A DNA stretch of 64,000 nt, taken from the NCBI RefSeq assembly GCF_003334785.1, contig NZ_QOWV01000001.1, one strand, 5' to 3'. Positions 31,929-32,033 of the stretch are shown piece by piece; positions within the stretch are counted from its first letter, which is position 1; each line of letters starts with the position of its first letter. Both the position numbers and the translations under genes were made by a program. Below the pieces are notes generated by a model. That model did no database searches. It was not told where the DNA came from and was given only the letters and a program-made list of their open reading frames with translations. Origin of the DNA: Escherichia coli (lineage in GTDB: Bacteria; Pseudomonadota; Gammaproteobacteria; Enterobacterales; Enterobacteriaceae).

Positions 31929-31979
31929 TAATCTCTATGCTCCGGCTGAAGGGATGTTTTTGCCGGACACAAAGGATAA

Positions 31980-31995
31980 GCGGAAACGTTTTCCT
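31980..31995. promoter_or_regulatory. PUR-box-like palindrome (candidate PurR operator) upstream of pyrC
   Basis: gcggaaacgttttcct resembles the PurR operator core (aCGCAAACGTTTtCnT); pyrC is an established PurR regulon member. Confidence 0.65.
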
Positions 31996-32000
31996 TTGCA

Positions 32001-32029
32001 CGAAAAATAAAGGGCGCGAATGCGCCCTC
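32001..32029 (-). terminator. Rho-independent terminator after yceB
   Basis: agggcgcgaatgcgccct hairpin followed on the minus strand by ttatttttcg. Confidence 0.65.
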
Positions 32030-32033
32030 GTGA

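Follow-up and report, generated by a model that had tools for sequence, protein, structure and literature searches.

Terminator, promoter, weak PurR operator and PyrC leader hairpin between yceB and pyrC of Escherichia coli

The 105 bp that separate yceB from pyrC on the minus strand, exactly positions 31929-32033 of the 64,000-nucleotide stretch of Escherichia coli DNA that was analysed (the window), very probably make up the entire control region of E. coli pyrC, which has been characterised before. This interval holds three known elements: the intrinsic terminator of yceB, the pyrC promoter with an embedded weak operator for the repressor PurR (a PUR box), and the PyrC leader hairpin. Textbook accounts of E. 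coli regulation, dating from 1987-1994, already cover the pyrC promoter, its control by PurR and the leader hairpin; PurR repression of this gene was published in 1990, so the finding is already known. The sequence, the matrix score, the terminator and leader folds, the Rfam match and the conservation were computed here, and PurR binding, repression and the start sites are taken from the literature.

The yceB-pyrC interval and its elements

Over 801 bp around yceB-pyrC the identity to E. coli K-12 MG1655 is 100%, and this region was found in 5426 of 5426 complete E. coli genomes searched. Of 5425 complete E. coli genomes, 5371 carry the 63-nt block comprising promoter, operator and leader with at least 99% identity. 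Plasmid-labelled records account for five of the 5426 matches to the region, and one genome is without the promoter block; mislabelled replicons or a gap in an assembly may explain these cases. In the RefSeq annotation, the minus strand carries yceB (lipoprotein) and pyrC (dihydroorotase), after which come dinI, bssS and solA, and the PyrC protein shows 99% identity to E. coli dihydroorotase with the Pfam domain PF01979. The elements are as follows.

32034..32594, minus strand: yceB coding sequence, lipoprotein with DUF1439, stop codon TAA at 32036-32034 (open reading frame list and RefSeq annotation of the identical MG1655)
32002..32029, minus strand: yceB intrinsic terminator, stem GAGGGCGC / GCGCCCTT (32029-32010, loop ATTC), then the T-rich tail TATTTTTC
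31996..32001, minus strand: inferred pyrC -35 hexamer GTGCAA (spacing to the -10; 3/6 match to TTGACA; 17-bp spacer)
31980..31995, minus strand: PUR box (PurR operator) AGGAAAACGTTTCCGC (weight matrix, conservation, literature on PurR regulation of pyrC)
31973..31978, minus strand: pyrC -10 hexamer TATCCT (conservation pattern across 14 species)
31964..31966, minus strand: alternative pyrC starts, C at 31966 and G at 31964 (literature description applied to the sequence)
31929..31978, minus strand: PyrC leader, Rfam RF02372 (score 68.7 bits, gathering score 50; match to model positions 1-50 of 50)
30882..31928, minus strand: pyrC coding sequence, dihydroorotase of 348 aa, ATG at 31928-31926 (open reading frame list and RefSeq annotation)

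Read in the pyrC sense, the 5' part of the interval runs TAA (the yceB stop), TCAC, GAGGGCGC, ATTC, GCGCCCTT, TATTTTTC, GTGCAA, AGGAAAACGTTTCCGC, T and TATCCT, and it continues with TTGTGT, CCGGC, AAAAACATCCCTTCA, GCCGG, AGC, ATAGAGATTA and ATG.

The yceB hairpin begins 4 nt past the yceB stop codon. An inverted-repeat search gave arms at 32011-32017 and 32022-32028 around a 4-nt loop, a terminator scan gave 8 pairs, 6 of them G-C, with the tail TATTTTTCGT, and the folded RNA reaches -15.2 kcal/mol (z = -4.5 against shuffles). Scan and fold thus agree with the initial annotation, which had placed a yceB terminator hairpin at 32011-32028, and the element is a predicted canonical intrinsic terminator. 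The pattern GGGCGC...GCGCCC followed by a T-run is visible in 10 of 14 aligned species; the terminator is cut off or degraded in Lelliottia and Pseudescherichia, a different hairpin stands in Superficieibacter, and none occurs in the Phytobacter stretch shown. Across species, 0 to about 25 nt separate the terminator from the -35, with 10-25 extra nt outside Escherichia, Salmonella and Citrobacter, and tight packing is therefore specific to these three genera. The initial proposal that operator and terminator are packed together accordingly holds for Escherichia, Salmonella and Citrobacter, and fails for the other genera.

The same annotation had expected the pyrC promoter within the roughly 80 bp between terminator and ATG, overlapping the operator; the distance is 82 bp, and the box lies between the -10 and the inferred -35. 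Across 14 species the first, second, third and sixth positions of the -10 (T, A, T and T) are invariant and positions 4-5 vary, giving TATCCT, TATGAT and TATGCT. A sigma-70 consensus scan of 31700-32300 detected no promoter. Reading this blank as absence of a promoter was rejected, since the known pyrC promoter is present there, and the blank is not proof of absence because the hexamers match the consensus at only 3/6 (-35) and 4/6 (-10) positions. The pyrC case illustrates that consensus promoter scans miss weak real promoters.

Liu and Turnbough (1994) are said to have placed the pyrC starts at 7 and 9 nt, and with TATCCT at 31978-31973 this gives the C at 31966 and the G at 31964. Measured from the literature-derived C start, the PUR box spans -29 to -14 and occupies the 17-bp spacer between the inferred -35 and the -10, a position within the promoter of the regulated gene, as is expected of an operator. 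Comparison with the start sites, based on secondary sources, puts both of them downstream of the palindrome; because the box at -29 to -14 lies upstream of the start, the reverse order, with a start upstream of the palindrome, does not apply. According to Cho et al., 44% of PurR-regulated promoters carry their box between the -10 and the -35 (PMC3159470).

Downstream of the operator lies the PyrC leader, which matches the Rfam family RF02372 over its full length, with the same hairpin and no difference, and which is an element separate from the PurR mechanism. Its hairpin pairs CCGGC (31966-31962) with GCCGG (31946-31942) across a 15-nt loop, and the 3' arm GCCGG overlaps the Shine-Dalgarno sequence GGAG at 31943-31940. 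Folding gave -8.1 kcal/mol for a transcript beginning at the C start versus -3.0 kcal/mol for one beginning at the G start, the latter no better than shuffled sequence. Folding thus gave a 5' hairpin over the Shine-Dalgarno sequence that needs the two 5' C residues. This start-dependent fold agrees with published work on translational control of pyrC through start-site switching, in which the C start is used at high CTP and yields a hairpin-forming transcript, and the G start, two bases further on, is used at low CTP and high GTP and yields a translatable transcript (PMC6524683). The PyrC leader is the dominant control of pyrC and the PurR input is the smaller one. The initial annotation omitted the leader although it lies within 31929-32033: a real operator and a terminator can be recognised from raw sequence, and a dominant regulatory element adjacent to them can be overlooked.

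Other Rfam matches above the gathering score in the window are the rne 5' UTR element (53713-54049, minus strand) and the sRNAs SraB (55910-56078, plus strand), ES056 (12572-12663, minus strand) and ES036 (CssrF; 22758-22800, minus strand), all of them known E. coli elements. At 6342-6972 on the minus strand, a tRNA (RefSeq tRNA-Ser) adjoins three tandem 137-nt RtT repeats with a spacing of 181 nt, each just above threshold for Rfam RF00391; the RefSeq note there reads 'processed from tyrT transcript', though the neighbouring tRNA is annotated as Ser. At about 3415-4986, between dgcT and ycdU, an IS3 element adjoins a truncated ACP S-malonyltransferase pseudogene, which by annotation is a known K-12 feature.

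Matrix score and conservation of the PUR box

The plus strand at 31980-31995 reads GCGGAAACGTTTTCCT, which in the pyrC sense (31995-31980) is AGGAAAACGTTTCCGC. An inverted-repeat search limited the perfect palindrome to the 8-bp core AAACGTTT plus one more G..C pair. The initial annotation had noted a palindrome at these positions resembling the core of a PurR operator, about 50 nt upstream of the pyrC start; what is present is a full 16-bp PUR box rather than the core alone, with its near edge 52 nt upstream of the pyrC ATG and its centre at about 60 nt. The PUR-box consensus is ACGNAAACGTTTGCNT, a 16-bp imperfect palindrome with a central CG, and AGGAAAACGTTTCCGC conforms to this description; the pattern ANGNAAACGTTTNCNT matches the pyrC box with 1 mismatch. 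An IUPAC consensus search allowing 1 mismatch gave 1 match in the window versus 0.31 expected, which is not significant alone, and a matrix scan was therefore needed.

The PurR weight matrix was built from the 28 motif sites under ChIP-chip peaks listed in Table 1 of Cho et al. 2011 (PMC3159470). The pyrC site is absent from these 28 sites, which makes the test independent. Read in the pyrC sense, the box reaches 16.49 bits, the top match on both strands of the 64-kb window (runner-up 14.4 bits), with an exact per-position p of 1.2e-6, which corresponds to 0.16 expected matches per window and about 11 per 4.6-Mb genome. A strand-symmetrised matrix gave 17.66 bits, again the top of the window. 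The weight-matrix scan that the initial annotation had called for thus places the box within the span of bona fide sites: the 28 ChIP sites have leave-one-out scores between 7.4 and 25.1 bits, and the pyrC box stands above 8 of the 28, in the lower third.

The left half-site, AGGAAAAC / ACGAAAAC, is excellent for PurR, and its 8-mers recur identically in purE, purT, purH and codB. The main departure from the matrix is at position 13 (window 31983), which is C where 27 of the 28 matrix sites have G, and position 16 is C instead of T, the commonest base there in the 28-site matrix; position 2 is G, which is tied with C at 13 matrix sites each. Judged from its sequence, the pyrC box is best classed as a genuine but weak member of the PurR sites.

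Several weaker similarities were observed elsewhere. At the 3' end of csgD, two abutting sub-threshold PurR-like 16-mers (11876-11891 and 11892-11907, plus strand) score 14.3 and 14.1 bits and are probably chance matches, and further sub-threshold PurR-like matches lie inside lpxL (25271) and rne (53039). Around the box itself, a 10-nt inverted repeat that is 90% complementary (31970-31979 / 31989-31998, CAAAGGAAAA ... TTATCCTTTG) flanks the box core and the -10 in E. coli. A functional role for this repeat was rejected, as species with the ACG variant disrupt the pairing with no compensating change, and it is probably incidental.

Conservation was followed through related pyrC loci. A scan of genome contigs with an overly degenerate PyrC protein motif returned at least 120 loci, mostly non-enteric. 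Among the matches listed, three were true enteric pyrC loci, from Citrobacter werkmanii, Escherichia albertii and Superficieibacter electus, each with a 16.48-bit box at the same offset as in E. coli; a Klebsiella match (L048) was rejected as a pyrC locus, being a paralog in a different context. As a negative control, 117 non-enteric pyrC-like loci among the matches listed had no comparable box, with a best upstream score of at most 12.3 and a median of 1.6. A protein search together with ten exact-protein look-ups added Salmonella, Klebsiella, Enterobacter, C. rodentium, Lelliottia, E. fergusonii, Pseudescherichia, Trabulsiella, Yokenella and Phytobacter/Metakosakonia; the order yceB-pyrC-dinI is kept in 10 of 10 added Enterobacteriaceae. 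The protein search also returned two proteins (P0003 and P0020) in which a DinI domain (PF06183) is joined to PyrC (PF01979), one of them labelled as the fungus Astraeus odoratus; likely causes are a mis-called gene on the opposite arrangement, or a eukaryotic assembly contaminated with enterobacterial DNA.

In the resulting alignment 13 of 14 Enterobacteriaceae species carry the PUR box. For these 13, the mean identity to the majority base was as follows.

Hairpin stems and GGAGC: 1.0, all columns invariant
-35 hexamer: 0.99, 5 of 6 columns invariant
PUR box: 0.97, 14 of 16 columns invariant
-10 hexamer: 0.94, 4 of 6 columns invariant
Terminator stem-loop: 0.71, 1 of 20 columns invariant
Hairpin loop: 0.68, 4 of 15 columns invariant
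Spacer between Shine-Dalgarno sequence and ATG: 0.57, 1 of 10 columns invariant

Within the box, column 2 varies between C and G, and at column 13, 11 species have C, 2 have A and none has G. The sequence just 5' of the -35 is variable though the -35 itself is conserved in the 13 species, and the leader hairpin loop differs between species in sequence and length, with both stems constant. The compared relatives have PyrC at least 88% identical among the matches listed; because the 13 species are such close relatives, the invariance of the box partly reflects shared ancestry. The exception is Phytobacter/Metakosakonia (L131:265-500, a JGI metagenome contig), where no PUR box was found and the best score was -2.9 bits. 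Its longer yceB-pyrC spacer (236 bp) still contains the -10 (TATGCT) and the leader hairpin, and by its sequence this lineage looks like a natural loss of PurR input.

Repression by PurR and the weakness of the operator

The 1990 papers reportedly described PurR repression of pyrC as about two-fold. Direct repression of pyrC by PurR is established in the literature (PMC3159470; PMC6245113), in agreement with the initial reading of the gene as a purine-repressor target. pyrC provides one of 15 PurR sites characterised before 2011 and is affected by purR deletion (PMC3159470), and corepressor-dependent PurR binding at pyrC in vitro is credited to Choi and Zalkin (1990) in papers that cite their work (PMC3159470, PMC6245113). 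Repression at pyrC is modest, much below that of purine biosynthetic genes (PMC6245113). The operator analysed here occupies the same locus as the characterised E. coli pyrC PurR operator and has its sequence without difference, this part of the window being 100% identical to MG1655.

These data are best explained by a simple order of events along the interval. Transcription of yceB would end at the GC-rich hairpin and U-tract, and a weak sigma-70 promoter, with -35 GTGCAA, a 17-bp spacer and -10 TATCCT, would follow directly after the terminator. Nearly the whole of its spacer is the 16-bp PUR box, where a PurR dimer with hypoxanthine or guanine would bind. Because the box lies between the two hexamers, PurR would compete sterically with RNA polymerase, and the off-consensus bases at positions 13 and 16 would make it a low-affinity operator giving only modest repression. 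Transcripts beginning at the C start would form the CCGGC/GCCGG hairpin that hides GGAG, and those beginning at the G start, two bases later, would be unable to do so; the larger, pyrimidine-specific control would thus act downstream of the operator, in the leader.

Comparison with other PurR targets places the pyrC box at the weak end of a known series. pyrD resembles pyrC in being a pyrimidine-pathway gene with modest PurR repression and CTP/GTP-sensitive start-site switching (PMC6524683, PMC3159470, PMC6245113), and the left half-site GGAAAACG of its PUR box (CGGAAAACGTTTGCGT) is identical to that of pyrC. The right halves differ, with the consensus TTGCGT in pyrD and TTCCGC in pyrC; ChIP-chip detected the pyrD box, at 21-22 bits, but not the pyrC box, at 16.5 bits. 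Strong pur operators, such as those of purT, purF and purH, have the same 16-bp motif between the -35 and the -10, as at pyrC (PMC3159470), a location that implies repression at initiation, but they score 22-25 bits and their repression is far stronger than that at pyrimidine genes (PMC6245113).

Using ChIP-chip, Cho et al. (2011) detected no PurR at pyrC in vivo, with or without adenine; glnB was likewise undetected, both sites being known from in vitro work, and the authors offered no explanation (PMC3159470). The literature searched yielded nothing relevant on ChIP-exo evidence for PurR at pyrC. The missing signal may plausibly stem from the low matrix score and from RNA polymerase competing for the same DNA.

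The absence of a ChIP-chip peak in either condition also agrees with another reading, to which only a slight probability is attached: that the box binds PurR in vitro and is little occupied in cells, its conservation reflecting a constraint on the promoter spacer or on contacts with RNA polymerase. The low score among real sites, the off-consensus position 13 in all 13 species, and the relative that lost the box yet keeps the -10 and the leader point in the same direction. However, promoter spacers are normally not conserved base for base, and here 14 of 16 columns are invariant, with the two variable columns swapping only between bases of equal effect on the matrix score. Moreover, genetic and biochemical evidence that PurR regulates pyrC is cited as established (PMC3159470, PMC6245113), and ChIP-chip could plausibly lack the sensitivity to detect a weak site on DNA that is shared with RNA polymerase.

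The never-G position 13 can equally be set beside the possibility that the palindrome mainly serves another repressor of the LacI/GalR family with a AAACGTTT-centred site, PurR cross-recognition being secondary. A AAACGTTT core with a central CG is common to several LacI-family operators. This reading is nevertheless very improbable, as no evidence of another regulator appeared in the literature searched and the left half-site is excellent for PurR. A functionless chance match is hardly credible and is effectively refuted by conservation together with published evidence: although about 11 equally good matches are expected per genome and the simple consensus search was not significant in the window, the box is the window's top matrix match and sits exactly within the promoter spacer, is invariant across genera whose adjacent intergenic sequence diverged or changed length, and has no counterpart upstream of the 117 non-enteric pyrC-like genes among the matches listed.

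With the box taken as a weak PurR operator, a small residual point concerns a site that is accepted in vitro, conserved across genera and unseen by ChIP-chip in vivo. The conserved non-G at position 13 could serve a promoter function or a second regulator. Alternatively, in a suggestion that is tentative and rather unlikely, the weakness of the operator may itself have been selected, giving a pyrimidine gene a shallow purine input through a PurR that competes only marginally with RNA polymerase. If true, such selected weakness would explain the missing ChIP-chip occupancy at pyrC.
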